Made by a program: the position numbers and the translations under genes
Notes under the pieces: generated by a model
What the model was told of the DNA's origin: nothing
The model's database searches: none
What the model saw: the letters and a program-made list of their open reading frames with translations, nothing else
Shown: piece after piece, positions 13,207-47,740 of the stretch
Numbering within the stretch: the first letter of the stretch is position 1
Layout: the number at the start of each line of letters is the position of its first letter
Assembly (NCBI GenBank): GCA_001785865.1
Contig: MFUZ01000009.1
Coordinates: 15,309 to 79,308 of the forward strand
Origin: Candidatus Nomurabacteria bacterium RIFCSPLOWO2_01_FULL_41_18
GTDB lineage: Bacteria; Patescibacteriota; Minisyncoccia; Phycocordibacterales; UBA9973
Length of the DNA: 64,000 bases
Direction: 5' to 3'

Positions 13207-14220
13207 ATGAATAATAAGGGACTGGATTTAATAGACCAAAAGATACTTTACGAGCTTGATTTGAATAGCGGGCAGTCTTTTTTGGATTTGGCGCAAAAAG
13301 TTGATATTCCAAATGAAACTGTCGCCTTTCGGGTCAAACGCTTGCAGAAAAATGGCTATATTAAGAATTTCATAACCAGTATAAACACTTCAAATTTAAA
13401 TAGTTTCTATTACAAATTCTTTTTTAAGTTTCAGAAAACAATTCCCAAAATAGAAAGAGATATTATTGATTATCTCCGCGCCTATCATGGGATAGCGTAT
13501 TTGGCTAGGCTCGAAGGCAGGTTTGATTGTACTTTTTTGGTTCTAGCGCAAGATATTTCTAATTTATATGCTTTTCTAGTTCCCTTCAAGGAAAAATTTG
13601 GAGAATATGTTTTGGAACAGGAAATTTTGACTATGACTTCAGTGCATAGATTTAATTTTCGCTTTTTTTATGAAGGCGGAAAATTACTCCATTCGCACTA
13701 CCCAGAAGAATTAAAAAGGCCTGACATAGATGACCTAGATTATGGGATTATCACTACCCTAGCGAAAAACTCGCGCGCAAGTTTGAGTGAAATGGCTAAA
13801 ACAAACAAAGTTCATCCGAATGTTATAAGATACAGAATCCAAAAACTTAAAAAGGGTGGATTTCTAGGAAATTCGGTCTTAGATATTAATTTTAAAAAGT
13901 TCGGAGTGGAACAATATCAAGTAGATTTCACTTTAAAAAACCAAAATGATGTGCAAAAAATTATAGATGCTGTGGCGCTACTACCCGAATCCACTTTTGC
14001 CACTGTGACTTTGGGTAAATACGATCTCGCCGTAGAATTCGCCGTAAAAAATAAAGATTCATTGAAAAGAATTTTGGATAGAATCAAAACTGAATTCAGC
14101 GACACGATCATCAGTCAAGATGTTTTTGAGATGGAAGAATATACCGTCAACTGGTTCCCATATAGTTTGAAGAAAAATGGCAAAGCAGAGACTCCGCTCC
14201 AAAATCAAACAGTGGTATAA
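13207..14220 (+). CDS. Tandem Lrp/AsnC-type HTH transcriptional regulator
   Basis: Two HTH_AsnC-like modules (LDLIDQKILYELDLNSGQSFLDLAQKV... and LDYGIITTLAKNSRASLSEMAKTNKV...). Confidence 0.65.
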   Translation: MNNKGLDLIDQKILYELDLNSGQSFLDLAQKVDIPNETVAFRVKRLQKNGYIKNFITSINTSNLNSFYYKFFFKFQKTIPKIERDIIDYLRAYHGIAYLARLEGRFDCTFLVLAQDISNLYAFLVPFKEKFGEYVLEQEILTMTSVHRFNFRFFYEGGKLLHSHYPEELKRPDIDDLDYGIITTLAKNSRASLSEMAKTNKVHPNVIRYRIQKLKKGGFLGNSVLDINFKKFGVEQYQVDFTLKNQNDVQKIIDAVALLPESTFATVTLGKYDLAVEFAVKNKDSLKRILDRIKTEFSDTIISQDVFEMEEYTVNWFPYSLKKNGKAETPLQNQTVV

Positions 14221-17001: not shown

Positions 17002-17784
17002 TTATATATTTTTATCTAATCTTTTGGCTTCCGCCCAAGCGAGCTCGTAAATTTTTTTCATTGCATCGGCGATTTCTGAACTTTCAATGATGATGCCGAG
17101 CTTTTCTCTCCAAGAGGCAATCATAATTTTGTTGTCATAAATGTTTATTTCAGGAGAAAAAAGAAAAGTGTCTTTTGGCACCAGAGCAGTCTCTCGCATT
17201 TCTGCCTTATCGAAACTTCTGCGCTCTAGCCCTGTCTCGGTATTTGGGATGATTGCTCGTATGGCGATGCCCTTCCCCGCTCTTCTTTTGTAGTAATCAG
17301 GAAAATACCCCGGCAAACCTTCGTGCATATCCCCGACGCTCGCATAAGCCCGTATCGGCTCAGAGCTCGTGAGCGTATCTTCGTATACATGCTTGAGACC
17401 TTCTTTGCCTTCATAAAATCTGATTCGAGGGCGATTTTGTTTCACGTGAAGGCGCTCGAGCTCAGGAATAATAGTTTCGGATCTTTTTATATTCTCTGCC
17501 ATTTCTTCCGCTCTTTTTTTTAAATATGCGGTGATTGCTTCCGGCGACTCCACTGCATATTCTGATTTTGGCTCTTTGCCGGAAACAGAAACCAACCCTT
17601 TATTGGAAAGCGAACCCAAGATATCGTAGCTCGTGGTACGATTTATTCCTGCCTTACCGCTGATTTGTCTTACTGTTCCTTTTCCTAATTCCAAGAGGGC
17701 GACATACACGATCGTCTCTTTTTCGCTGAATCCAAAAGATTGAAGATTTAGTTTAAGTTGTTCATTTGTATCTTTCATATCCAA
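17002..17784 (-). CDS. TrmB-family transcriptional regulator
   Basis: N-terminal wHTH (FGFSEKETIVYVALLELGKGTVRQISGKAGINRTTSYDILGSLSNKGLV) plus a C-terminal sensor-like domain. Confidence 0.65.
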   Translation of the reverse strand: MDMKDTNEQLKLNLQSFGFSEKETIVYVALLELGKGTVRQISGKAGINRTTSYDILGSLSNKGLVSVSGKEPKSEYAVESPEAITAYLKKRAEEMAENIKRSETIIPELERLHVKQNRPRIRFYEGKEGLKHVYEDTLTSSEPIRAYASVGDMHEGLPGYFPDYYKRRAGKGIAIRAIIPNTETGLERRSFDKAEMRETALVPKDTFLFSPEINIYDNKIMIASWREKLGIIIESSEIADAMKKIYELAWAEAKRLDKNI

Positions 17785-17929
17785 ATTCTAATCTAGAAAA
17801 TATTCTGTGTCAATCTTTTTCCACAATAATATGTTGATAACTATAAATAGATTGTCGTCTATGGCTTATTTGATTATTTAATTGACGAAATCTATTGACA
17901 ATGACATATTATATTTATAAGATGATTGT

Positions 17930-18208
17930 ATGATAAAACACATAGAAAGTGGAATATCTGGAAAGGGCTTAGGACTTCATTATCTTCAATCAATAAGAAG
18001 TCTGGCTATTATGTGTCAAATCAAGGGTATAGTATTTACAAAGCCAGATGGTAGTATTAAGGTGGTGGCAAAGGGAGAGGAAAGAGATTTGCTAGAGTTC
18101 GCAAGCAAACTAGAAAGAGAAAGCAGCTCCCGGGAAATAGAGAACTTTTATACAAAATGGAGTGAACCAAATAAGGATTTAGAAAGTTTTCACGTAGTAA
18201 CTGGTTAA
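17930..18208 (+). CDS. Acylphosphatase-like fold protein (degenerate active-site loop)
   Basis: GxGLG..Y......A....IKG.V.N..DGSVKVVA.G pattern; 92 aa. Confidence 0.45.
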   Translation: MIKHIESGISGKGLGLHYLQSIRSLAIMCQIKGIVFTKPDGSIKVVAKGEERDLLEFASKLERESSSREIENFYTKWSEPNKDLESFHVVTG

Positions 18209-18214
18209 ATATAT

Positions 18215-19894
18215 ATGCAAAAAAATTGCCAAACATGTAACAAAGAGTTCGAAATAAGAAAGGATGATTTGATTTTTTACGATCAAGTAAAAACCGCTCC
18301 CCCAGAGGACTGCCCCGACTGCCGAGCGATGCGTCGCCTTGCTTTCCGCAATGAGCGAACTTTCTACAAAAGGCCTTGCGATCTTTGCAAGAAGGATATG
18401 ATTTCTCTCTATACGACCAATTCTCCTTACACGGTGTATTGCCACGAATGCTGGTGGAGCGATAAATGGGATCCTAAAAATTTCGCCCAAGATTACGATC
18501 CCAATAAAACATTTTTTGAACAATATGGAGAATTGCAAAAGAAAGTCCCAAGATTGTCTTTGATGATGATCAACTCCGTACGGAGCGAATATACAAACGG
18601 TGCAGCCGACAATAAAGATTGCTATCTCATCTTTGCAGCAGATGGCAACCAAGATTGCCTATACGGGAGATTGGTCCAAAGATCAAAAAACTGCGTCGAT
18701 TGTGCTTTTATCTACGATTCAGAATTATGCTACGAGTGCATCGATACTCATGAATCCTTTAAATGTATGTATTCCGAACAATGCACCGCCTCGAGCGATC
18801 TCTTATTCTGCTACAACATGCGCAACTCAAATAATTGTATTTTTTGCGTCAATGGAAGAAATATTTCTAACGCGATTTTAAATGTAAAATATTCAAGAGA
18901 AGAGTTTGAGAAAAAGAAAAAAGAACTCCTGTCCAGCTATGAAAACATCGAAAAAGCAAAGAAAGAATTTACAGAATTAAAAAACAAGACAATCGTTAAA
19001 TACTCTGCGCAAGTAAAATGTCACAACATTACGGGCGACCATCTATACAATTGCTATGACGGGATACGAGCATTCGATAGTTCGAGCGCAAAAAATTCTT
19101 CCTACATCGCTGACGCCGAGGACTCTATCGATTGCATGGATTTGAACAATTGTTATTACAAGCCCGAACTTTGTTACAACATGATGGGTGTCTTGCAAAG
19201 CAGTAAATGTAAAAACGGTGCTTTCGTATTTTATTGCAATGAAGTTGAATATTCTGAAAATTGCCACAATGTGACGAGTGCCATCGGGTGCAACGCTATA
19301 CGCAAGGGTCAGTATATGATTTTCAATAAAGAGTATTCAAAAGAAGATTTTTACAAAATCAAAGAACAAATCGATGCACAGATGAAAAAAGATGGAACTT
19401 ACGGACAATTTTTCCCGCCAGAGCTCGCCCCTTTTGGCTTTAATGAAACTCTGGGAAATGATTATTATCCACTTACCAAAAAGGAAGCAGAAGAAAAAGG
19501 TTTCAAATGGCAAGATCAAACTACTGGCACATACGGAAAAGAAACAATCAAAGAAAATGAAATTCCGGAGACCATTACTGAGGTCACAGAAGATATTTTA
19601 AATGAAATTTTGGTTTGCAAGGACTGCAAAAAGAATTTCCGTATCACTCAATCAGAGTTGGATTTCTACAAGAGGATGAACATTCCTCTCCCGCACAAAG
19701 ACTTTGAATGCCGACACCGTGACAGAATGAAGAAGCGCAATCCTCGCAAGCTTTGGCCTCGTTTCTGTATGTGTAAACTAAAAACTCATCAACACGGCAC
19801 AGAAAAATGTGAAAACGAATTCGAAACCTCCTACTCCCCCGACAGACCCGAGATAGTTTACTGCGAAAAGTGTTATCAACAGGAAGTTTCCTAG
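18215..19894 (+). CDS. Large Cys-rich protein with a repeated N- and C-terminal zinc-ribbon-like module and a central array of Cys pairs
   Basis: N-terminus CQTC..FEI....LIFYDQ....PEDCPDCRAMRR...RNER mirrored at the C-terminus as CKDC..FRI...ELDFYKRM..PLP..CRHRDR; about 45 Cys overall. Confidence 0.6.
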   Translation: MQKNCQTCNKEFEIRKDDLIFYDQVKTAPPEDCPDCRAMRRLAFRNERTFYKRPCDLCKKDMISLYTTNSPYTVYCHECWWSDKWDPKNFAQDYDPNKTFFEQYGELQKKVPRLSLMMINSVRSEYTNGAADNKDCYLIFAADGNQDCLYGRLVQRSKNCVDCAFIYDSELCYECIDTHESFKCMYSEQCTASSDLLFCYNMRNSNNCIFCVNGRNISNAILNVKYSREEFEKKKKELLSSYENIEKAKKEFTELKNKTIVKYSAQVKCHNITGDHLYNCYDGIRAFDSSSAKNSSYIADAEDSIDCMDLNNCYYKPELCYNMMGVLQSSKCKNGAFVFYCNEVEYSENCHNVTSAIGCNAIRKGQYMIFNKEYSKEDFYKIKEQIDAQMKKDGTYGQFFPPELAPFGFNETLGNDYYPLTKKEAEEKGFKWQDQTTGTYGKETIKENEIPETITEVTEDILNEILVCKDCKKNFRITQSELDFYKRMNIPLPHKDFECRHRDRMKKRNPRKLWPRFCMCKLKTHQHGTEKCENEFETSYSPDRPEIVYCEKCYQQEVS

Positions 19895-21657
19895 TTATTT
19901 TTTCGTACTCCGTGTTTAGTGTGCAATTTTTCTATTTCTTTTTCTTCAAGTTCTTCTTTTTTTTCTTTTCCTTTATCTCCAAGCGCCTTTAGTTCTTTAT
20001 CATCAAGTTTATCCATAGATTTTACCAACTCTGACAACTTTTCTACAGTATTTTTCTTTGGATCTTCTAAAACTTCTTCCAATAACGCACTTAAAATCCA
20101 CCCCATGCGGGGTCCAGGCTTGATTCCGAGCTTGTGTATCATAAATTCTCCGTTTATTTTTAATTGGCCGACGGAAATAGGGTCTCGCAGTGCCTCTTCT
20201 ATCATGGCAAAATACTTCCGCAGTCGATACGGAGCTTCTTTTTTCTTCATCCCTACCCTATCACATTCCCTTACTTTCATTAAATCCCAAATTGGATGAT
20301 CTTTATTTTCTTTTTTATCCGCCAAAGCTTTAGCGTCGGCGGGGCCAACTTTTGTAATGATTCTACGCACTGCAGAAAGTGTAATTAGCTCCGTATCAGA
20401 GAAAAACATATGATTGCGGACGAGTTTTTCCACAAGATCAGTTTCCTTTTTTGGAAATCTCAGCCTCTCCATTATTTTTTTTGCCATCCGCGCCCCAATA
20501 ACTTCATGGCCGTAAAAAGTGTATTTCTTTTTGCTTCTCGCTGGAAATAAATTCTTTGACATTCCTCCAGTCTCCGACTGGAACCTTCCGTCTGCAGAAT
20601 TTTTTTTCCGCTCCGAAGCAGGTTTAGGGAGATTCTTCACGCGGAAGGTTCCGCCCGAAGGGTGGAGGAAAGCGGAAGAATTTTCCTGAACCTGCGAAAC
20701 ATCTCTGCGACTTTTTGGCTTTCCAATATCGTGGAAAAGCGCAGAAAGCCTTATTTCTAAAGGCCAGTTTTTGTCGGCAGCGTGCTGGAGAGCATGCAAT
20801 AAATGTTCCCAAACATCATAAATGTGCTCCCCTAATTGTTCGCACTTTATCCCCTCCTCTAATTCTGGAATAATATTTTTTAGCAATCCGAATTTTTGCA
20901 GCATCACGATTCCGCTCGCAGGATTTTTCGACAAAATTATTTTTATAAACTCGTCGCGAATTCTTTCCGGAGAAATATTTTTTATCAAGTCCGCATTTTT
21001 AAAAATGCTTTCTGCAGTTTCTGATGAAATAGAAAAATTTAATTGTATCGCAAACCTCACCGCCCGCAACATTCGGAGTGCATCTTCTTTAAAACGATCA
21101 CCTCCTTCCCCTACTGTCCTCAATGTCTTGTCCTTTATGTCCTTTATACCATTAAACATATCTACGAGATGTCCTTTAGAATTTAAAGCGAGGGCGTTGA
21201 CCGTAAAGTCACGTCTTTTAAGATCATCTTCTAGCTTATCACTAAATTTCACCTCATCAGGATGTCTAAAATCGCTATATTTTGCTTCAATTCTATATGG
21301 GGTGACTTCCACAATGGTGGTTGTTTCTCCTACCAACACTGAAGCTTTTGTGGACAAGTGTGAAACACTATCAATTGTGGTTTCACGGGAAACTACCACT
21401 CCCACTGTGCCAAAAGTATTCTCATACACAGTCTTCTTGAAAAGTTTAATGATTTCTTCTGGTTTAGCATTGGTTGTGACATCCCAATCTTTAGGTTCCC
21501 TTCCTCCTTCGGCTCCGCTCAGGATCTGCGACATCATAAGATCTCTTACACATCCACCCACCAAATATGCTTCAAAACCAGCTTGCTCAAGGGCATCTGT
21601 TACATGTGAAACAGTTTTTGGTATTTTTTCTATTAAGTTTTTATATTGACTGTTCAA
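19891..21657 (-). CDS. cca: CCA-adding tRNA nucleotidyltransferase / poly(A) polymerase family with HD domain
   Basis: GGCVRDLMM head motif; HD motif LFHDIGKP; about 50-aa Arg/Ser/Lys-rich insertion inside the HD domain; Glu/Lys-rich C-terminal tail. Confidence 0.8.
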   Translation of the reverse strand: MNSQYKNLIEKIPKTVSHVTDALEQAGFEAYLVGGCVRDLMMSQILSGAEGGREPKDWDVTTNAKPEEIIKLFKKTVYENTFGTVGVVVSRETTIDSVSHLSTKASVLVGETTTIVEVTPYRIEAKYSDFRHPDEVKFSDKLEDDLKRRDFTVNALALNSKGHLVDMFNGIKDIKDKTLRTVGEGGDRFKEDALRMLRAVRFAIQLNFSISSETAESIFKNADLIKNISPERIRDEFIKIILSKNPASGIVMLQKFGLLKNIIPELEEGIKCEQLGEHIYDVWEHLLHALQHAADKNWPLEIRLSALFHDIGKPKSRRDVSQVQENSSAFLHPSGGTFRVKNLPKPASERKKNSADGRFQSETGGMSKNLFPARSKKKYTFYGHEVIGARMAKKIMERLRFPKKETDLVEKLVRNHMFFSDTELITLSAVRRIITKVGPADAKALADKKENKDHPIWDLMKVRECDRVGMKKKEAPYRLRKYFAMIEEALRDPISVGQLKINGEFMIHKLGIKPGPRMGWILSALLEEVLEDPKKNTVEKLSELVKSMDKLDDKELKALGDKGKEKKEELEEKEIEKLHTKHGVRKNN

Positions 21658-21668
21658 GATTTACTTTG

Positions 21669-21740
21669 TGCACCCGGCAAGACTCGAACTTGCAATAATA
21701 GTTCCGAAGACTATTGTGATATCCGTTTCACTACGGGTGC
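21669..21740 (-). tRNA. tRNA-Arg (anticodon TCG)
   Basis: Reverse complement GCACCCGTAGTGAAACGGATATCACAATAGTCTTCGGAACTATTATTGCAAGTTCGAGTCTTGCCGGGTGCA folds as a cloverleaf; anticodon loop CTTCGGA. Confidence 0.8.
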
Positions 21741-21894
21741 AAATTATTTTTTAATATGATAATTTTACACTATTTTTTATATAATGGCAAATAATGCTTA
21801 TTCTATAAGGAAATTTTGACCCAAAGTGGCAATTGCATTAGATGCTACAAAATACTATAATGTTTGCAACATTAATTTGGAATAAAAAAAAATT

Positions 21895-21965
21895 GCGGTC
21901 ATGGTTTAGTGGTAGAACACGTCCTTGCCAAGGATGAGACGGGAGTTCGATTCTCCCTGGCCGCA
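21895..21965 (+). tRNA. tRNA-Gly (anticodon GCC)
   Basis: GCGGTCA acceptor, T-arm GGGAGTTCGATTCTCCC, anticodon loop TTGCCAA. Confidence 0.85.
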
Positions 21966-22190
21966 CAAATATAAGCAATTTCAATGTCCTTTATTAATAA
22001 CTTTAACACATAAGGGTTTTACTAAAACTGGGGATAACTGTGTTGGTAATGTTCATAAAGGACATAACAAAAGTTTGTCTTTTATGGTCGTTTTTAGCTA
22101 AATACGTTATAAAATAAGGGTTTTAGTATAAAAGACATTAAATTATACATGTACGTTTCACGTGAAACGTGTTACATATGAAACAACTAA

Positions 22191-22616
22191 ATGCCTAAAG
22201 TATTCACCTCAGAAAAACAAAAAATAGGGGAAATAGGTGAAAATATAGCAGTGAAGTTTCTCATGAAACATAATTTCTCGATTTTAGACCGAAATTACAC
22301 AAAAAAATGGGGTGAAATAGACATAGTAGCTGAAAAACAAAATAAACTTTATTTTATAGAAGTGAAAAGCGTTTCTCGTGAAACACTGAATACTTTTATA
22401 CCAAAATCGTACAATGACTCCGACGAGAGATACGAACACAGACCAGAAGACAATATGCATCCTTGGAAATTAAAACGTCTCTCGCGCACAATTCAAACTT
22501 ATATTTTATCTAAAAATCTGGACGAAAAAGAATGGCAAGTAGATTTGCTTGTGGTTTATTTATGTCAGAAAGAAAAGAAGGCAAGGGTAAAGGTAGTAAG
22601 TGATATTATTTTGTGA
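22191..22616 (+). CDS. yraN: YraN/UPF0102-family endonuclease
   Basis: IGEIGENIAVKFLMKHNFSILDRNY....GEIDIVAEK..KLYFIEVKS, family signature. Confidence 0.7.
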   Translation: MPKVFTSEKQKIGEIGENIAVKFLMKHNFSILDRNYTKKWGEIDIVAEKQNKLYFIEVKSVSRETLNTFIPKSYNDSDERYEHRPEDNMHPWKLKRLSRTIQTYILSKNLDEKEWQVDLLVVYLCQKEKKARVKVVSDIIL

Positions 22617-22706
22617 CCCTTCGATAAACTCGGGCCTTCGCTCTGAGACTCAGGCTCGAAGAGGTCATGGTGAATTTAATAGAACCATGATATACTCGTT
22701 TTTATT

Positions 22707-22777
22707 CGGGCCGTAGTATACCGGTAGTACAAGTGCTTTGGGAGCATTTAGACTGGGTTCAATTCCCAGCGGCCCGA
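22707..22777 (+). tRNA. tRNA-Pro (anticodon TGG)
   Basis: CGGGCCG acceptor, anticodon stem AGTGC/GCATT with loop TTTGGGA, T-arm CTGGGTTCAATTCCCAG. Confidence 0.8.
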
Positions 22778-22781
22778 CATT

Positions 22782-23192
22782 ATGACTTCATTTGCTTTGC
22801 TTTTTACACTCTCAACGATTGGAATCAGTGAAACTGTTTATCTTATTCGCAAGAGAATCGCTTTAGAAAAACCTATCTGTCCGATCGGAGGGGGCTGTGA
22901 AAAAGTGCTAGAAAGTAAATACAATAAGATTTTTTTCATCCACAATGATGTTGTGGGCCTTTTATCTTACATAATAATTTCTGTCATAGCGGCATTTTTG
23001 GTAATTGAGGTCCCGCCGGCCACTTTGTGGAGCTTGCTAATTAAAATTCTCGTTGTGACAGCTTCGCTCGCATCTTTGTTTTTCACATATCTGCAATGGC
23101 GTGTCCTCCGAGCTTGGTGCTTTTGGTGTCTGATGTCGGCATTTACAATCTGGCTGATGGCGATTATAATATTGGTAAGTGCAGTAATTTAA
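22782..23192 (+). CDS. Vitamin K epoxide reductase (VKOR)-family thiol oxidoreductase
   Basis: Loop Cys pair CPIGGGC and TM-embedded CFWC active-site motif; 4 TM helices. Confidence 0.7.
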   Translation: MTSFALLFTLSTIGISETVYLIRKRIALEKPICPIGGGCEKVLESKYNKIFFIHNDVVGLLSYIIISVIAAFLVIEVPPATLWSLLIKILVVTASLASLFFTYLQWRVLRAWCFWCLMSAFTIWLMAIIILVSAVI

Positions 23193-23194
23193 TT

Positions 23195-23608
23195 ATGAAC
23201 AAAACTTCATTTCATATTTTAAGAGTCGGGCTCGCCATAACTTTTTTATGGATTGGTGTTTTAATTTTTAAACAACCTGAAGCTTGGGGAGGGTATCTGG
23301 CGCCATGGGCCGCCAACCTATTGCCCGTACCCATTGAGCAGGCCATGATGGGAACCGCATTCGTAGATATTTTAATCGGAGTTTTCTTATTGATTGATTC
23401 GTTTGTATGGATTGCAGCACTGGTGGGAGCACTACATTTGATAGCTGTCCTAGTAGTGAGCGGTATTACTGACATAACAGTCAGAGATATTGGAATTTTG
23501 GCAGGAATGGTCGCATTGATGGCGGATTCTCTTCCGAAAACTTTGATCGACAAAATACAATCATGGACAAAAAGGGGAAATGGGTCAGAACAAACAAATC
23601 AAAGTTAG
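23195..23608 (+). CDS. DoxX-like membrane protein
   Basis: 4 TM helices with a DoxX-like N-terminal helix (ILRVGLAITFLWIGVLIF); start taken at MNKTSFH, 3 nt after the VKOR stop. Confidence 0.5.
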   Translation: MNKTSFHILRVGLAITFLWIGVLIFKQPEAWGGYLAPWAANLLPVPIEQAMMGTAFVDILIGVFLLIDSFVWIAALVGALHLIAVLVVSGITDITVRDIGILAGMVALMADSLPKTLIDKIQSWTKRGNGSEQTNQS

Positions 23609-23645
23609 TCACTTTGCAGATTATTATTAATTTTATTTACAAATT

Positions 23646-24107
23646 ATGAATAAAACAATATCTTTCGTTTTAATTTTAATAGTTGTCGCCTTAGGGGGTT
23701 ACTTTTTATTTAAAAGTCCGAAAGTTCAAGCGCCAGTTTCTCCATCAGGAATAACCAACAATGAAAATGAAACTGAGACAACAGATCAGACCACGAATGA
23801 CAGCAACATAGCCAGCCCTGTAATAATTTATAGCAATACGGGCTATGCACCCAGCACGATAACCATAAAAGCCGGGACTATTGTAACGTTCAAAAACGAA
23901 AGCTCTTTATCAATGTGGACAGCTTCCGCATCTCACCCTACACATGGAGTCTATCCTACGACTGGTGGTTGCCTTGGTAGCACTTTCGATTCCTGCAAAG
24001 GTATTTTGCCTGGAGAATCCTGGTCATTTAAATTTGACGAGGTTGGAAATTGGAAATATCACGATCATTTGAAACCCAGCTTCTTTGGAACTATTGTCGT
24101 AGAATAA
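23646..24107 (+). CDS. Secreted or anchored cupredoxin-like beta-sandwich protein with a Cys pair (no canonical type-1 Cu ligand set)
   Basis: N-terminal TM or signal anchor; TITIKAGTIVTFKN...; C-terminal GNWKYHDH; CxxxxxxxxC pair. Confidence 0.4.
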   Translation: MNKTISFVLILIVVALGGYFLFKSPKVQAPVSPSGITNNENETETTDQTTNDSNIASPVIIYSNTGYAPSTITIKAGTIVTFKNESSLSMWTASASHPTHGVYPTTGGCLGSTFDSCKGILPGESWSFKFDEVGNWKYHDHLKPSFFGTIVVE

Positions 24108-24201
24108 ATTTTAGTTCAAAAATTTTGTAACTCGAGAACAATACTAGTAGATACCCAGTATTGTTTTTGGTGTTTTTTTAGGGTATAAATAATGAGCGAA
24201 G

Positions 24202-24272
24202 GCGGGATTAGTTTAATGGTAAAATAACAGTTTTCCAAACTGTGGACAGGAGTTCGATTCTCCTATCCCGCA
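24202..24272 (+). tRNA. tRNA-Gly (anticodon TCC)
   Basis: GCGGGAT acceptor, anticodon stem ACAGT/ACTGT with loop TTTCCAA, T-arm GGAGTTCGATTCTCC. Confidence 0.85.
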
Positions 24273-24273
24273 C

Positions 24274-29732: not shown

Positions 29733-31817
29733 TTGTGGTATATTTCAAGAGTGACTACCGAGGGAGAGCATCTAGAAGGACTAAATAGCGAACAGAGAGA
29801 AGCGGCAATTCATACGAATGGTCCGCTTCTTATCATCGCGGGGGCAGGCGCCGGAAAAACAAAGACGATAACGCACCGGATCGTGAATCTGATAAAAAAT
29901 GGTGTTTTACCGGAGCGGATTTTGGCTGTCACCTTCACCAACAAAGCGGCTAAAGAAATGCGGGAACGGATCATTGCAGAAATCAAAAAAAATACCAATG
30001 GGATTCACGGGCAAGATGGGGTTCCTTTCGTTTCTACATTTCACTCTTTAGGAGTTTACATAATAAAAGAGCATGCGAAGCTGCTCGGACTGACTAGGTA
30101 TTTCACTATCTTGGACGAAGGAGATGCAACCTCACTCATAAAAACAATACTCAAAGATATCGGCATAGACCCAAAACAATACGATCCGAAGAAAATAAAA
30201 AACATTATTTCGAGAGAGAAGGGCAAATTTGTACAGATTGCGAACTATACCGAGAGGGAAGGAGCCAATTCTCTTGCAAAAATAGTGGCACAAGTTTGGA
30301 GCCTGTATGAAAAGCAAAAAATGAAAGAAAACTCACTCGATTTTGATGATTTACTTTTGAAAGCGACAAGATTATTGAAAGAAAATCCTGAAATCAGAAA
30401 AATATATCAAGAAAAATGGGAATACATCCACGTTGATGAGTATCAAGACACAAATGAAGTACAGTATTTAATGTGCCAAATGCTTGCAGATAATAACAAA
30501 AATATTTGTGTCGTGGGGGACGCGGATCAGAACATTTATTCATGGCGCGGGGCAAATTTAAAAAATATCTTGAGTTTTGAGAAAGATTATCCGGATGCAA
30601 AGATAGTTTTATTGGAGCAAAATTACCGATCGACCCAGAATATCCTCGAGGCCGCCAATGTGGTGATCAAGAAAAATAAATTCCGGCCGGACAAGAACCT
30701 CTTCACCAAGAATGAGAAAGGGGAGAAGATCGGATTGTATGAAGCATTGGATGAAAACGATGAGGCAGAATTTGTGGTGACAAAAATTTTAGAAATCCTG
30801 GACGGTAAAGCGAATGTACCTCGGCAGGGTCTCTCGCAGGCCGACGGGCCGAGAGGGAGCGCTCTGTCAGCAGACAGAGACAGCGACCCTGTCGAGGTAA
30901 CATACGCTTTAAAGTCCGAGAATATCTTGTCCGAAGTCGCAGTACTCTACCGCGCCAATTTCCAATCTCGCGCACTGGAAGAAACAATGCTCAAATACAA
31001 CATTCCATATCAAGTTCTTGGGGTTAAATTTTTCGAACGAAAGGAAATAAAAGACACCCTCGCCTATTTGAGAGCAGCTTTGAACAAAGATAGCTTGTCC
31101 GATATTAAAAGGGTCATCAACTTTCCGGCGCGGGGAATCGGCAAAGTCACTTTGCTTAAAATTTTTGCCAACGAGACAGAAACCCTGCCGATAAAAGTGA
31201 AAATAAAGATAAATAATTTTTATCAGACCCTAGAAGATATCAAGGAAAAGATTGCAAGCCTGAAAACCAGTGAAGTAATAAAATTTGTATTGAAAAAGTC
31301 CGGCATAGAAAACGAACTTTCTTCCGGCACAGAGGAAGATGCGGAAAGGCTCGAAAACATAAAAGAGCTTGCGACGCTGGCGCTCAAATACGACAGTCTC
31401 GAAGCCGGCCGGGGGGTAGAAAAGCTTCTCGAAGACGCGTCCCTGGCCTCCGACCAGGACAGCATTATGATCAATGAAAGCCACAAGGAAGAAAAGATAA
31501 ATGGTGTAAAACTCATGACTGTACACGCTGCCAAAGGGCTCGAGTTCAAGTATGTCTTCATCACTGGACTCGAAGACGGCCTTTTTCCTCACGAGCGGCA
31601 CGGCGAAGGGGAGAGCATCGACCATGAAGAAGAACGCCGGCTTTTCTATGTGGCAGTCACTCGCGCCCGGAGCAAACTTTTTCTCTCCTTTGCAAATTTC
31701 CGCACCATCTTTGGATCACGCAATATGAATGCTCCATCAGAATTCATAGCTGATGTGCCCACAGACCTGCTTGAAAAAGAAGGCGAAGATAGTAGAATAA
31801 AAACCATCTATATATGA
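29733..31817 (+). CDS. pcrA: ATP-dependent DNA helicase PcrA/UvrD
   Basis: LNSEQREAAIH, Walker A AGAGAGKTKTITHRI, helicase motifs DEYQDTN, VGDADQNIYSWRGA, YRS, TVHAAKGLEF; probable TTG start. Confidence 0.9.
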   Translation: MWYISRVTTEGEHLEGLNSEQREAAIHTNGPLLIIAGAGAGKTKTITHRIVNLIKNGVLPERILAVTFTNKAAKEMRERIIAEIKKNTNGIHGQDGVPFVSTFHSLGVYIIKEHAKLLGLTRYFTILDEGDATSLIKTILKDIGIDPKQYDPKKIKNIISREKGKFVQIANYTEREGANSLAKIVAQVWSLYEKQKMKENSLDFDDLLLKATRLLKENPEIRKIYQEKWEYIHVDEYQDTNEVQYLMCQMLADNNKNICVVGDADQNIYSWRGANLKNILSFEKDYPDAKIVLLEQNYRSTQNILEAANVVIKKNKFRPDKNLFTKNEKGEKIGLYEALDENDEAEFVVTKILEILDGKANVPRQGLSQADGPRGSALSADRDSDPVEVTYALKSENILSEVAVLYRANFQSRALEETMLKYNIPYQVLGVKFFERKEIKDTLAYLRAALNKDSLSDIKRVINFPARGIGKVTLLKIFANETETLPIKVKIKINNFYQTLEDIKEKIASLKTSEVIKFVLKKSGIENELSSGTEEDAERLENIKELATLALKYDSLEAGRGVEKLLEDASLASDQDSIMINESHKEEKINGVKLMTVHAAKGLEFKYVFITGLEDGLFPHERHGEGESIDHEEERRLFYVAVTRARSKLFLSFANFRTIFGSRNMNAPSEFIADVPTDLLEKEGEDSRIKTIYI

Positions 31818-42155: not shown

Positions 42156-44030
42156 ATGTCAATTTTTGAAAAATTATTTAAAAAGAAAAATGTTACTCCA
42201 ACCATAGGCAACACCTATTCGAATGAAATGCAGACTTCGGTCCTGCCGGTATTGCCAGAGCAGATCTACGAATCGGCCAGTCTGGAGCTTCAGGATATCA
42301 TTGCTCCTTCGGCGCTCAAAATAGAGCCGAAGTCGATCAACTTGGGTGATAAAACCGCCCGCACCTTTTTCATAATATCCTATCCGAGATTTTTGACAGA
42401 TAACTGGTTTTCTCCGGTAATAAATTTGGACAAAATCTTCGATATTTCTATCTTTATCCACCCGATAGACACATCGCTCATGCTTCGCCAGTTCCAGAAA
42501 AAAGTCGCCGAAGTACAGAGCCAGATAAGCGTGCGCGAAAAAAAGGGAATGGTGCGAGACCCGATGCTCGATACCGCCTATCAGGACCTGGAAGGCCTCC
42601 GCGACAACCTGATCCAGGCACAAGAAAAAATGTTTGATGTGAGTATATACATCACCATTTATGCCGACAATGACATGGAGTTGTTTAAGATTGAAAACGA
42701 AATAAAATCCATTCTCGAATCAAAATTGATATACATCAAGCCAGCACTCTTCCAGCAAGAAGCCGGGTTCAAGAGCGTCATTCCCACCAATACCGACTTA
42801 CTCAATATCCACCAAAAGCTTAACTCCGGGCCGCTTTCAAGTGTTTTTCCTTTTATATCTTTCGACCTGACTGACAATAAAGGCATCCTCTACGGCATCA
42901 ACCGGCACAACTCGTCCCTCGTTATCTTCGACAGATTCAGCTTAGAAAACTATAATTCGGTGACTTTTGCCAAATCAGGTTCGGGAAAATCTTATGCCAC
43001 CAAACTGGAGATCCTGCGATCTTTGATGTTTGACGTGGACGTCATCGTCATCGACCCGGAGAGGGAATATGAATTCCTGGCGGAAGCAGTCGGCGGACGA
43101 TATTTCAACATTGCTCTTTCTTCCGACCATCACATGAACCCTTTTGACCTGCCGATACCCCGCGAAGACGAGACAGCTGAAGACGTCTTACGGTCAAATA
43201 TTATAAATTTGGTCGGGCTTTTCCGCCTGATGTTAGGCGGGCTCACCCCCGAAGAAGATTCGATGGTGGATCGGGCGATTTCGGAAACTTATGCCATGAA
43301 AGACATCACTCCGGAATCAGATTTCTCTAATATCGAGCCCCCACTTCTTTCAGATTTTGAAATGGTACTCTCCGGCATGGACGGCAGCGACTCCATCGTC
43401 GCTCGCTTGGCAAAATACACCAAAGGCTCCTGGGCCACTTTCTTGAATCGCCCTTCGAATGTAGACATAGATAAAAAATTCGTTGTCTTTTCGGTTCGCG
43501 ACATGGAAGACGAGCTCAAACCAGTAGCCATGTATATCATCATGCACTTCATCTGGAACGCAATCCGCAAAAACCTCAAGAAGAGACTCTTGGTTATAGA
43601 CGAAGCCTGGTGGATGATGAAGTCCGAGGATACTGCCTCGTTCCTCTATTCCATTGCTAAAAGAGGCCGAAAATATTATCTGGGCCTTTCCACCATCACT
43701 CAAGATGCCGCCGACTTTATGAAGTCCCCATATGGTGTACCGATCATCACCAACTCTTCCATCCAGCTCTTGCTCAAACAATCTCCAACCACCATAGATA
43801 TATTGCAGAAAACTTTCAATCTTACCGACGAAGAAAAATACCTACTTTTGGAGTCGAGCGTGGGCGAGGGGATATTCTTTGCCGGATTAAAACATGTTGC
43901 CATAAAGATCATCTCGTCCTATACCGAAGACCAGATCATAACTTCCGATCCCTCGCAAATATTATCCAATAGAAAAGCTAAAGAAGAACAAGATGCGGCA
44001 GAACTCTCTTCAAAGACCAAGCAGGTTTAA
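42156..44030 (+). CDS. virB4: VirB4/TraC/CagE-family type IV secretion ATPase (PrgJ/TcpF-like)
   Basis: Walker A FAKSGSGKSY, Walker B LLVIDEAWWMM, DUF87/AAA_10-like layout; 624 aa. Confidence 0.8.
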   Translation: MSIFEKLFKKKNVTPTIGNTYSNEMQTSVLPVLPEQIYESASLELQDIIAPSALKIEPKSINLGDKTARTFFIISYPRFLTDNWFSPVINLDKIFDISIFIHPIDTSLMLRQFQKKVAEVQSQISVREKKGMVRDPMLDTAYQDLEGLRDNLIQAQEKMFDVSIYITIYADNDMELFKIENEIKSILESKLIYIKPALFQQEAGFKSVIPTNTDLLNIHQKLNSGPLSSVFPFISFDLTDNKGILYGINRHNSSLVIFDRFSLENYNSVTFAKSGSGKSYATKLEILRSLMFDVDVIVIDPEREYEFLAEAVGGRYFNIALSSDHHMNPFDLPIPREDETAEDVLRSNIINLVGLFRLMLGGLTPEEDSMVDRAISETYAMKDITPESDFSNIEPPLLSDFEMVLSGMDGSDSIVARLAKYTKGSWATFLNRPSNVDIDKKFVVFSVRDMEDELKPVAMYIIMHFIWNAIRKNLKKRLLVIDEAWWMMKSEDTASFLYSIAKRGRKYYLGLSTITQDAADFMKSPYGVPIITNSSIQLLLKQSPTTIDILQKTFNLTDEEKYLLLESSVGEGIFFAGLKHVAIKIISSYTEDQIITSDPSQILSNRKAKEEQDAAELSSKTKQV

Positions 44031-46189: not shown

Positions 46190-47740
46190 ATGACAAAAAG
46201 AAATTTCATACTTTTAATAGTAATCTTGGCCCTCACTGTAATTTCGGTTTTCGTGTTTCTGGTTTTGCGCGAGCCGGGAACGGAACCATCCGGAGAAGAG
46301 ACAGGGAAGGGTACGAATTTTATTTCGCAATTTAATCCGTTCGCAACCAAGCCAAAACCTCCGGCCGAGAACCCACCGGCCGAGACTACCCCGGATGAGC
46401 TTCCAGTAGAAACTGAAAAATTAAAATTCACTAAAGTTTCAAGCATGCCCATAGCCGGATTCGCAGTCTTCACAAAAGAAAGATTGAAGGATGTTCCTGC
46501 AATCATACCGGCAATAACAGAAGAAACCCCCTATGATTTCGGCTCCGCCACTATTAAAAATGGAAGCACTGGTGAAGCAGTAAAAGAAGTTCAGAGATTT
46601 TTGAATAAAACACTAAATCTTAGCCTAGAACTTGATGGCACACTAAATGCAGAAACAATTGCCGCTATCAAGAAGTGGCAGGGAGATCATGGATTGGTCA
46701 CTGATGGTGTCGTCGGTGCAAAAACAAAAGTGTTGATGTATTCTTCTGTAAACCAAAATATGGGAACCTCAAATCCCACCTCACCGCCGACGGAATTCAT
46801 GTCTGCCTTGAGATATGTGGACAAGGCGACCGGAAATATTTACCAGACTTTCGCGGATAAGATCGAAGAAAGGAAATTCACCACCACGATAATACCGAGG
46901 GTGCACGAAGCATATTTCGGGAACCACGGAGGATCGGTAATCATGCGATATCTGAAGGCAGATGCGAGAACCATCGAGACTTTTGTCGGCTCCTTGCCGA
47001 AAGAGGTACTCGGAGGGGATACGACAGGAAATAATGAGATCAAAGGATCCTTCTTGCCTAGCAACGTCAAAGACGTGAGCCTGTCGCCGGACACTCTAAA
47101 AGTATTTTACTTGTTTGAAAGCGGTGAAAATATCATCGGCACAATTTTAAACCTGACCACTAATCAAAAAACTCAAATCTTTGATTCTCCTTTCACCGAG
47201 TGGCTACCCGAGTGGCCAAATCAAAACACTATTACGCTCTCGACCAAGCCTTCTTTCGGCGTCCCCGGATATATTTATTCGATGAACTCGGCTGGCAAAA
47301 ATTTTAGCAAGACTTTGGGTGATATAAATGGACTCACTGCGCTCACAAGTCCAGATGGGAAACTTATTCTTTTCAGCAACAACAATTTATCCCTGAACGT
47401 TTATCACACAGATACCAGAAATTCTGACACCCTCGGCATAAAGACCCTCTCGGAAAAATGCGTCTGGGGCAAAATGAGCGACGCTATATACTGTGCTGTG
47501 CCGAAGTTAATTGGTGTGGGGGCATTCCCAGACTCTTGGTACCAAGGAGAAGTTTCTTTTTCAGATCAGATTTGGAAAATAAATGTGAAAAATGGGAATG
47601 GGGCCCTGTTGCTCGACCCGGTGGCGGTAAGAGGAGGGGAGGAAATCGATGGCATGAGACTTGCCCTAGATGAGAACGAGAACTATTTATTCTTCATGAA
47701 CAAAAAAAATTCTTTCCTGTGGGAATTGGAATTGAAGTAA
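46190..47740 (+). CDS. Membrane-anchored protein with a peptidoglycan-binding module and a predicted beta-propeller (TolB-like) domain
   Basis: PG_binding_1-like GEAVKEVQRFLNKTLNLSLELDGTLNAETIAAIKKWQGDHGLVTDGVVGAKT; N-terminal TM; repetitive beta-strand C-terminal region. Confidence 0.5.
   Translation: MTKRNFILLIVILALTVISVFVFLVLREPGTEPSGEETGKGTNFISQFNPFATKPKPPAENPPAETTPDELPVETEKLKFTKVSSMPIAGFAVFTKERLKDVPAIIPAITEETPYDFGSATIKNGSTGEAVKEVQRFLNKTLNLSLELDGTLNAETIAAIKKWQGDHGLVTDGVVGAKTKVLMYSSVNQNMGTSNPTSPPTEFMSALRYVDKATGNIYQTFADKIEERKFTTTIIPRVHEAYFGNHGGSVIMRYLKADARTIETFVGSLPKEVLGGDTTGNNEIKGSFLPSNVKDVSLSPDTLKVFYLFESGENIIGTILNLTTNQKTQIFDSPFTEWLPEWPNQNTITLSTKPSFGVPGYIYSMNSAGKNFSKTLGDINGLTALTSPDGKLILFSNNNLSLNVYHTDTRNSDTLGIKTLSEKCVWGKMSDAIYCAVPKLIGVGAFPDSWYQGEVSFSDQIWKINVKNGNGALLLDPVAVRGGEEIDGMRLALDENENYLFFMNKKNSFLWELELK

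Follow-up and report, generated by a model that had tools for sequence, protein, structure and literature searches.

Gene organization of the locus

A 64,000-nucleotide stretch of the genome of Candidatus Nomurabacteria bacterium RIFCSPLOWO2_01_FULL_41_18, called the window below, contains a three-gene region in which a gene for a TrmB-like transcription regulator is divergent from two genes, encoding a 92-amino acid (aa) acylphosphatase (AcP)-like protein and a 559-aa cysteine-rich protein. The main subject here is the 559-aa protein, which has a homologous zinc module at each terminus and two homologous repeat domains between them, and which appears from database searches to belong to an undescribed protein family. 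The genes and the parts of the Cys-rich protein are located as follows.

17002..17784, − strand: TrmB-like transcription regulator, 260 aa (open reading frame with a PF01978 match)
17785..17929, no strand: divergent control region, 145 bp, with back-to-back sigma-70-like promoters in a promoter scan
17930..18208, + strand: acylphosphatase-fold protein, 92 aa (PF00708 match; both catalytic residues lost)
18215..19894, + strand: Cys-rich protein, 559 aa with 36 Cys; soluble, with no signal peptide or membrane segment
18221..18460, + strand: N-terminal zinc module, residues 3–82; two fingers with conserved Cys
18566..18889, + strand: repeat domain A, residues 118–225; about nine 12-residue coils with Cys/Ser at every third position
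18890–19000, + strand: helical hairpin after domain A, residues 226–262
19010..19333, + strand: repeat domain B, residues 266–373; duplicate of domain A
19334–19600, + strand: helix and conserved acidic alpha/beta linker, residues 374–462
19610..19882, + strand: C-terminal zinc module, residues 466–556; duplicate of the N-terminal module

The three open reading frames (ORFs) were found at the positions and on the strands where the first-pass annotation had placed them. The GC content of the locus is about 0.39–0.41, within a range of 0.32–0.48 across the window, and the close homologues of the 559-aa protein are all labelled Patescibacteria (Nomurabacteria/Paceibacteria-like). The three-gene region is native to a Patescibacteria chromosome of this type. 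The gene order around the orthologues is fixed: ExoIII, TMEM175, TrmB on the − strand, the AcP-like gene, sometimes a gene for a 579-aa paralogue, the Cys-rich gene, the CCA enzyme on the − strand, and UPF0102. No second paralogue of the Cys-rich gene was found in the window.

Duplicated zinc modules at the termini

The 36 Cys residues make up 6.4% of the 559-aa protein; the first-pass annotation had given a count of about 45, which is too high. Neither a hydrophobic segment nor a signal peptide was detected in the protein, the maximum Kyte-Doolittle mean over 19 residues being 0.62. The proposal that the N-terminal module is repeated near the C-terminus was borne out by profile alignment, in which residues 3–82 are homologous to residues 466–556 (hhalign probability 99.8%, E = 5e-29), and by tblastn searches, in which the C-terminal module cross-matched the N-termini of homologues.

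Each module is composed of two fingers. In the N-terminal module, finger 1 (C5/C8/C33/C36) is of the zf_Tbcl type and is followed by an Arg-rich helix (R37/R41/R45/R48), and finger 2 (C55/C58/C76/C79) is of the zf_Tbcl_2 type. In the C-terminal module, finger 1 is formed by C468/C471/D496/C499 with H494 and H501 nearby. The family has Cys at the position of D496, and this Asp is invariant within the orthologue group. Finger 2 of the same module, C518/(C520)/C532/C550/C553, is again of the zf_Tbcl_2 type. Family statistics (Cys frequency and charge) were calculated from 150 representatives with identities of 50% or less. The finger Cys were conserved at frequencies of 0.66–0.98 in this set, and C58, C76 and C79 were gained or lost together (phi 0.88–1.0). 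These patterns are consistent with about four structural zinc sites in the whole protein, which are predicted to be occupied by zinc.

The finger types were assigned through homologues that score above the Pfam thresholds, with zf_Tbcl (PF13451) corresponding to finger 1 and zf_Tbcl_2 (PF23477) to finger 2. The query itself scored 15.5 bits against zf_Tbcl at residues 465–502, below the cut-off of 24, and gave no match to zf_Tbcl_2 at E ≤ 0.01. In the Pfam survey of the family, for which 85 homologues were scanned and matches were taken at E ≤ 0.01, zf_Tbcl was matched by 18 of the 85, and P0094, P0169 and P0225 reached 25–26 bits at residues 4–45. The same fraction (18/85) matched zf_Tbcl_2, whose cut-off is 27 bits; at the C-terminal finger, P0202 scored 38.7 bits and P0215 scored 31.1 bits, and in both the match was in two stretches. 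Both families are described in Pfam as "probable treble clef" fingers of about 40 residues from bacterial and phage proteins, with no function assigned. They cover less than one third of the 559-aa protein, and the fixed pairing of the two finger types, the duplication at both ends and the core of about 370 residues lie outside their definitions.

A fold search of BFVD gave phage "zinc-ribbon domain proteins", which superpose with a root-mean-square deviation of 0.6 Å over 43 residues. The last finger, residues 514–558, is weakly similar (E = 0.018) to the second finger in the LIM domains of CRP1 and CRP2, with which it has the W-x-x-x-C ... YC-x-x-CY pattern in common. However, this resemblance extends over only half of a LIM domain, the query has no Pfam LIM match, and only one of the 85 surveyed homologues matched (E = 0.0065).

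Structure prediction by AlphaFold2 (AF2) depended on the input alignment. With 60 close orthologues, the predicted local distance difference test score (pLDDT) of the core was below 50, while 85 sequences including paralogues gave a mean pLDDT of 80 and a predicted template modelling score of 0.82. By part, the fingers and linker were at 83–96 (N-terminal module 83–95, linker 86–96) and the repeat domains at 60–73. The mean net charge in the family was +3 and +5 for the two zinc modules and −4, −4 and −6 for the body, the last value being that of the linker. The plan of the protein is a zinc module, repeat domain A with a helical hairpin, repeat domain B with a helix, an acidic alpha/beta linker, and a second zinc module.

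Central repeat domains and their cysteines

The centre of the protein is likewise a duplication, which the earlier reading had overlooked. Residues 118–225 are homologous to residues 266–373 as a 108-residue domain (hhalign probability 99.9%, E = 3e-31), and both copies end with N-x-Y-S-(K/R)-E-E, followed by helices. All of the 11 Cys between residues 136 and 211 are in one phase modulo 3, for which the chance is about (1/3)^10, and six Cys (136, 148, 160, 172, 184 and 208) are exactly 12 apart on the lattice of the query. The periodicity was also found in the family, where the autocorrelation of the Cys frequency was 0.71 at lag 3 and 0.62 at lag 12. At least ten regularly spaced Cys pairs had been claimed for this region; the regular spacing is real and far beyond chance, but the centre has only three CxxC pairs (160/163, 172/175 and 208/211).

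The lattice Cys interchange with Ser, Leu, Val and Ala among the representatives. The frequencies of the central Cys range from 0.07 to 0.92, and the number of Cys per repeat domain varies from 3 to 20 across the family. Co-variation among them is weak (phi ≤ 0.62) and no Cys has a constant partner, in contrast to the finger ligands. Neither the ferredoxin spacing (CxxCxxCxxxCP) nor the radical-SAM spacing (CxxxCxxC) occurs in the Cys pattern of the query, and no Fe-S family of Pfam or NCBIfam matched the 559-aa protein. The central Cys do not behave as the many zinc-knuckle or Fe-S-like units suggested in the first-pass annotation. Because they lie on a lattice at every third position, which would face inward in a solenoid, exchange with Ser and small hydrophobic residues, and lack the co-variation of a ligand set, we infer that the central cysteines are packing residues and not separate zinc knuckles or Fe-S sites.

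In the AF2 model, isolated beta-bridges recur every 12 residues, at 178, 190, 196, 208 and 220 in domain A and at 281, 293 and 305 in domain B. Together with the Cys lattice, these bridges of a moderate-confidence model suggest that the centre forms a pair of narrow beta-solenoids with 12 residues per turn and a core lined with Cys and Ser.

The same cysteines could be read as those of a multi-metal protein, in which numerous metal ions (Zn, Cu or Fe) or Fe-S clusters are bound in the centre and the protein serves as a metal store, buffer or redox protein. Members of the family have 19–49 Cys, stretches of the family consensus read CxxCxxCxxC, and the four inward-pointing Cys of a coil could in principle hold metal. 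The gene neighbourhoods add CutA1 in one paralogue array (L053), an ArsR-type regulator in another locus (L020) and, within a few genes of orthologues, a ZIP transporter. On the other hand, Ser, Leu and Val freely replace the central Cys, one member retains only 3 Cys in domain A, the all-or-none co-variation of the finger ligands is missing from the centre, the query has no ferredoxin or radical-SAM spacing or Fe-S family match, and its share of Cys is far below that of metallothioneins. We consider a multi-metal function unlikely.

A comparable lattice is known in insects. Beetle antifreeze proteins are small, secreted, disulfide-bonded ice binders. Their beta-helix has a 12-residue repeat with the consensus TCTxSxxCxxAx (PMC4204002). 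The Tenebrio/Microdera antifreeze protein (PDB 1ezg) shares with the query the period of 12 residues and Cys, Ser or Ala at every third position. In contrast to it, the 559-aa protein is predicted to be cytoplasmic, with no signal peptide, has no Thr-x-Thr face, and has its Cys mostly 3 and 12 residues apart rather than 6. The resemblance is one of pattern only, and is not taken as evidence of common descent.

The acylphosphatase-like neighbour

The 92-aa protein has the fold signature of the acylphosphatases, matching PF00708 with 43.5 bits (cut-off 22.5, E = 4e-11), and was aligned end to end with the Sulfolobus AcP 2bjd. It differs from these enzymes at the active site. The phosphate-binding Arg of the VQGVGFR motif is replaced by Leu and the catalytic Asn by Lys, in agreement with the degenerate catalytic loop described in the first-pass annotation, and both residues are missing in all eight related AcP-like copies. 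Scores against the NCBIfam acylphosphatase equivalogs were 31 bits or less, compared with cut-offs of 86–131. From the residue loss, the protein is predicted to be catalytically dead.

The AcP-like gene ends 6 nt ahead of the Cys-rich gene. Because of this short gap and the absence of a terminator in the junction, the two genes are probably co-transcribed. The AcP-like subfamily is tiny, with only 25 homologues, and all of the 10 copies examined are next to an orthologue of the Cys-rich gene, either upstream or downstream; many of the orthologues, however, have no AcP-like gene, and AcP is absent at most loci of the family. The pair is therefore a clade-specific cassette. The first-pass annotation had raised the conservation of the gene pair as a check. 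The pair and the divergent TrmB gene are kept in related genomes, but within a single orthologue clade and not throughout the family, and the complete TrmB/AcP-like/Cys-rich cassette is kept only in a narrow Nomurabacteria-like clade.

The order of the two genes recalls the hydrogenase maturation factor HypF, which has an acylphosphatase domain followed by zinc fingers at its N-terminus. Here the gene for the AcP fold immediately precedes one whose product starts with two CxxC...CxxC fingers, and by this analogy the AcP domain and the zinc fingers would together process acyl or carbamoyl phosphate. However, both AcP catalytic residues are gone in every copy, Pfam searches gave no zf-HYPF, YrdC or Kae1-type match, most family loci have no AcP, and no hydrogenase gene was noticed in the neighbourhoods that were examined. 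HypF-like chemistry is scarcely credible for this pair, and the analogy was rejected on the domain content and the dead AcP active site.

The TrmB-like regulator and the divergent control region

The 260-aa protein matched the winged helix-turn-helix domain PF01978 at residues 14–80 (E = 1.7e-16, 60.2 bits, cut-off 25.6), and its gene is on the − strand, opposite to the pair. This agrees with the TrmB-type regulator proposed in the first-pass annotation. The winged-helix domain is common to TrmB, TrmBL1 and TrmBL2, and the size is near that of TrmBL2, whose NCBIfam model has 264 positions. In contrast to these proteins, no Pfam match was obtained past residue 83 and the sugar-binding C-terminal domain was not detected; the scores against the TrmB, TrmBL1 and TrmBL2 equivalogs of NCBIfam were 15–44 bits against cut-offs of 500–650; and the protein is bacterial (Patescibacteria), not archaeal.

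Gene neighbourhoods were counted in 84 related loci, which were picked by similarity to the query protein and are a biased sample. The divergent arrangement with a TrmB gene was found in 11 of the 84, and in all three of the look-ups that led from the AcP-like gene.

The control region of 145 bp was scanned for promoters and for inverted repeats. A promoter-like site, TTGACA-17-TAGAAT, is on the − strand at 17813..17785, and another, TTGACA-17-TAAGAT, is on the + strand at 17895..17923. In 11 orthologous intergenic regions, TTGAC(G/A)-N7-8-TTGACAA was kept, while the remaining spacer sequence had diverged. This element may be the TrmB operator. The conservation of the bidirectional promoter region suggests that the TrmB-like regulator probably controls both the AcP-like and the Cys-rich genes.

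Size, distribution and novelty of the family

A word-indexed search returned 2175 homologues of the 559-aa protein, of which the top 120 are full length, 63–83% identical and all named "hypothetical". When 1.84 billion representatives were searched exhaustively, 3680 clusters (50% identity) were obtained at E ≤ 1e-3 and 1427 at E ≤ 1e-30; among the matches listed, nearly all are of 520–600 aa and aligned end to end. With one genome taken per GTDB species, at least 558 matches were confirmed. The 80 loci that were kept are nearly all of Patescibacteria type (Nomura-, Lipton-, Staskawicz-, Jorgensen-, Sungi-, Falkow- and Uhrbacteria, and Paceibacterota).

Two loci carry other labels: L013 is on a 3.4-kb contig binned as Azospirillum sp. 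and L055 on a 277-kb contig binned as Burkholderiales. They are probably mis-binned or mislabelled contigs of the Patescibacteria (also known as CPR); if the labels were genuine, the family would reach beyond this group. These two bins aside, the family appears to be restricted to the Patescibacteria.

Searches of Pfam, NCBIfam, PADLOC, PHROGs and PDB sequences, and fold searches of PDB and BFVD, gave nothing beyond the terminal zinc fingers. Foldseek gave no fold match in PDB, the PADLOC and PHROG models gave matches at noise level only, and no relative of the family was found in the viral contigs of IMG/VR. Searches of the literature on the zf_Tbcl finger, on Cys-rich zinc-ribbon paralogues and zinc-carrying VirD4 proteins of the Patescibacteria, and on cysteine ladders in beta-solenoids gave nothing relevant. 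The earlier opinion that no described family or system accounts for the protein therefore stands. The whole protein, the repeat domain and the tandem-array habit described below are absent from known families, and the searches point to an undescribed family and architecture, which is not to be equated with a demonstrated new mechanism.

Several individual matches were discarded as noise: Pet127 (18.5 bits, cut-off 25), SmrB of NCBIfam (12.9 bits), MTase_II of PADLOC (16 bits) and a dGTPase in PDB (E = 0.98). The name "ERCC4-type nuclease", given by JGI/IMG to the 78%-identical homologue P0014, is not supported by any profile search, and looks like an annotation error that could spread.

Genomic contexts across the family

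The orthologues of the window gene are 59–81% identical, and the neighbouring CCA enzymes 66–71%. Since this identity matches that of the neighbouring housekeeping genes, it points to purifying selection on the orthologue group. One orthologue, at L086:4299–5977, was called as two ORFs (361 and 216 aa), a split that may reflect a frameshift, a pseudogene or a mistake in the assembly.

In other genomes the family forms co-directional tandem arrays of paralogues, which the earlier reading had also overlooked. In loci L032 and L053, a stretch of 14 kb contains at least 8 copies; there are 6 in L065 and L030, and 3–5 in many loci. The copies are 30–45% identical. The commonest neighbour of the family is a soluble TrwB/TraD/VirD4/HerA-like ATPase, with 25 genes in 18 of the 84 loci, 10 of them immediate neighbours; 9 of 10 that were checked were verified by Pfam. 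These ATPases often carry a zf_Tbcl_2 finger, as the Cys-rich family does. At L034:3817–13680, ATPase genes alternate with family genes three times, a pattern that looks like duplication of a module of two genes.

The TrwB/TraD/HerA-like ATPase genes are themselves multi-copy at L034 and also at L040, L045, L067 and L069.

The arrays and the ATPases could be explained by conflict or interaction with a host, in which the array members would be diversified effectors, immunity proteins or substrates of the adjacent coupling-protein-like ATPases in episymbiotic bacteria. The tandem arrays of 4 to at least 8 copies at 30–45% identity and the recurrent adjacency of TrwB/TraD/VirD4-like ATPases favour such a role, as does a block with a VirB4/TraG-type ATPase (42156–44030) in the same window. 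However, purifying selection on the orthologues is strong and their places on the chromosome are fixed, and copies are found within housekeeping operons; no PADLOC or PHROG match and no IMG/VR copy was found; and no secretion signal, toxin domain or enzyme domain was detected. A conflict function is improbable on this evidence.

Other placements are in operons of a different kind. In one clade (L022, L023, L025, L026, L029, L033 and L037), two or three family copies lie on the same strand between grpE and dnaK, in the order S9, GrpE, the family genes, PaaX and DnaK, with the PaaX-like regulator antisense. The family gene is also found between ftsW and murG, as three copies after scpA-scpB, and as four copies after rpoC (the loci include L089:8874–12957 and L076:551–11274). 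The grpE-dnaK placement could suggest a stress or chaperone zinc protein, which would work as a holdase or co-chaperone in the manner of DnaJ or Hsp33 with their zinc domains. However, this synteny is limited to one clade and other copies are in unrelated operons, Pfam and PDB sequence searches gave no similarity to DnaJ or Hsp33, and there are no chaperone genes near the window copy. We regard a chaperone role as very unlikely.

A possible role of the 559-aa protein

Neither an enzyme family match nor a conserved set of catalytic-looking residues was found in the 559-aa protein by Pfam, NCBIfam and family conservation. We tentatively favour, as the best of several uncertain explanations, that it is a non-enzymatic cytoplasmic binding scaffold or adaptor, with two basic zinc modules on an acidic double solenoid. 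The explanation combines features that were computed directly (both duplications, the conserved and co-varying finger Cys, the lattice of the central Cys with its substitutions, the layout of charge, the size and distribution of the family, and the neighbourhoods) with predicted ones (the fold of the solenoids, the presence of zinc in the fingers, joint transcription of the AcP-like and Cys-rich genes, the operator of the TrmB-like protein, and all binding functions). The double solenoid would be a rigid acidic rod that holds the two basic two-finger modules at a fixed distance, and the modules would bind nucleic acid or a partner protein. In the wider family, the partner would probably be the soluble TrwB/TraD/HerA-like ATPase, which is often adjacent and has the same zf_Tbcl_2 finger. 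In the clade of the window, the Cys-rich protein may act with the dead acylphosphatase-fold subunit under the TrmB-like regulator.

Several points weigh against the scaffold explanation or parts of it. Mean-field direct coupling analysis (382 sequences, effective number 275) gave no enrichment of i to i+12 pairs; it was dominated by subfamily signal and too noisy to confirm contacts between coils. The only PDB sequence match outside the fingers was 1ezg at query residues 155–217, which is not significant (E = 8.4). The cysteines of such a core might also hold metal or pair as disulfides. As for the ATPase link, it was observed in 18 of 84 loci of a sample biased towards the query, and no TrwB-like ATPase, PaaX-like gene or GrpE was found in the window. 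Many family copies are within same-strand housekeeping operons.

A bolder version, which we think quite unlikely, is that the protein is a Patescibacteria-specific structural adaptor whose Cys core is itself functional. The core would either contain a row of stacked metal ions or be a thiol/disulfide ladder by which the rod is stiffened, or released, upon oxidation, and the adaptor would be the partner of the soluble multi-copy TrwB/HerA-like ATPases, taking part, for instance, in the uptake or handling of DNA. If this were true, it would explain why 4–10 copies are kept in genomes under 1 Mb.

Patescibacteria make up a large share of bacterial diversity, and most of them have genomes of about 1 Mb or less, with much conserved gene content unexplained. 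In some of them, at least 8 tandem copies of the family take up more than 1% of the coding capacity. The distinction of the zinc sites from the lattice Cys makes the family experimentally tractable, and a recurrent ATPase partner is flagged. If the solenoid core or the ATPase link is functional, a CPR-specific cellular system would be exposed; otherwise, this is a new domain family worth curating.

Other features of the window

The CCA-adding/poly(A) polymerase-HD enzyme (19891–21657, − strand) is convergent with the Cys-rich gene, and the stop codons of the two genes overlap, with 4 nt shared. It is 588 aa long, compared with 525–542 aa in relatives, and has lineage-specific insertions: one of about 9 aa near the N-terminus, one in the HD region whose length of roughly 20–40 aa varies with the relative compared, and a later one of about 12 aa. 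The CCA enzyme gene is adjoined at 21668–24273 by four tRNA genes (Arg-TCG, Gly-GCC, Pro-TGG and Gly-TCC), with small ORFs between them.

The product of a gene at 13207–14220 (+ strand), 337 aa long, contains two winged-helix domains of the Lrp/AsnC type (HTH_24 twice) but only one recognised AsnC ligand-binding domain, and looks like a tandem-fused Lrp-like regulator. The region 26504–47740 has large same-strand ORFs (440, 625, 738 and 855 aa) with no Pfam match, and the AT skew reaches 0.41 at 28–30 kb. It includes a UvrD-like helicase (29733–31817), the VirB4/TraG-type P-loop ATPase mentioned above and a protein with a peptidoglycan-binding domain (46190–47740). The block could represent a gene cluster for type IV secretion or for a pilus-like structure, or else an element that has integrated.

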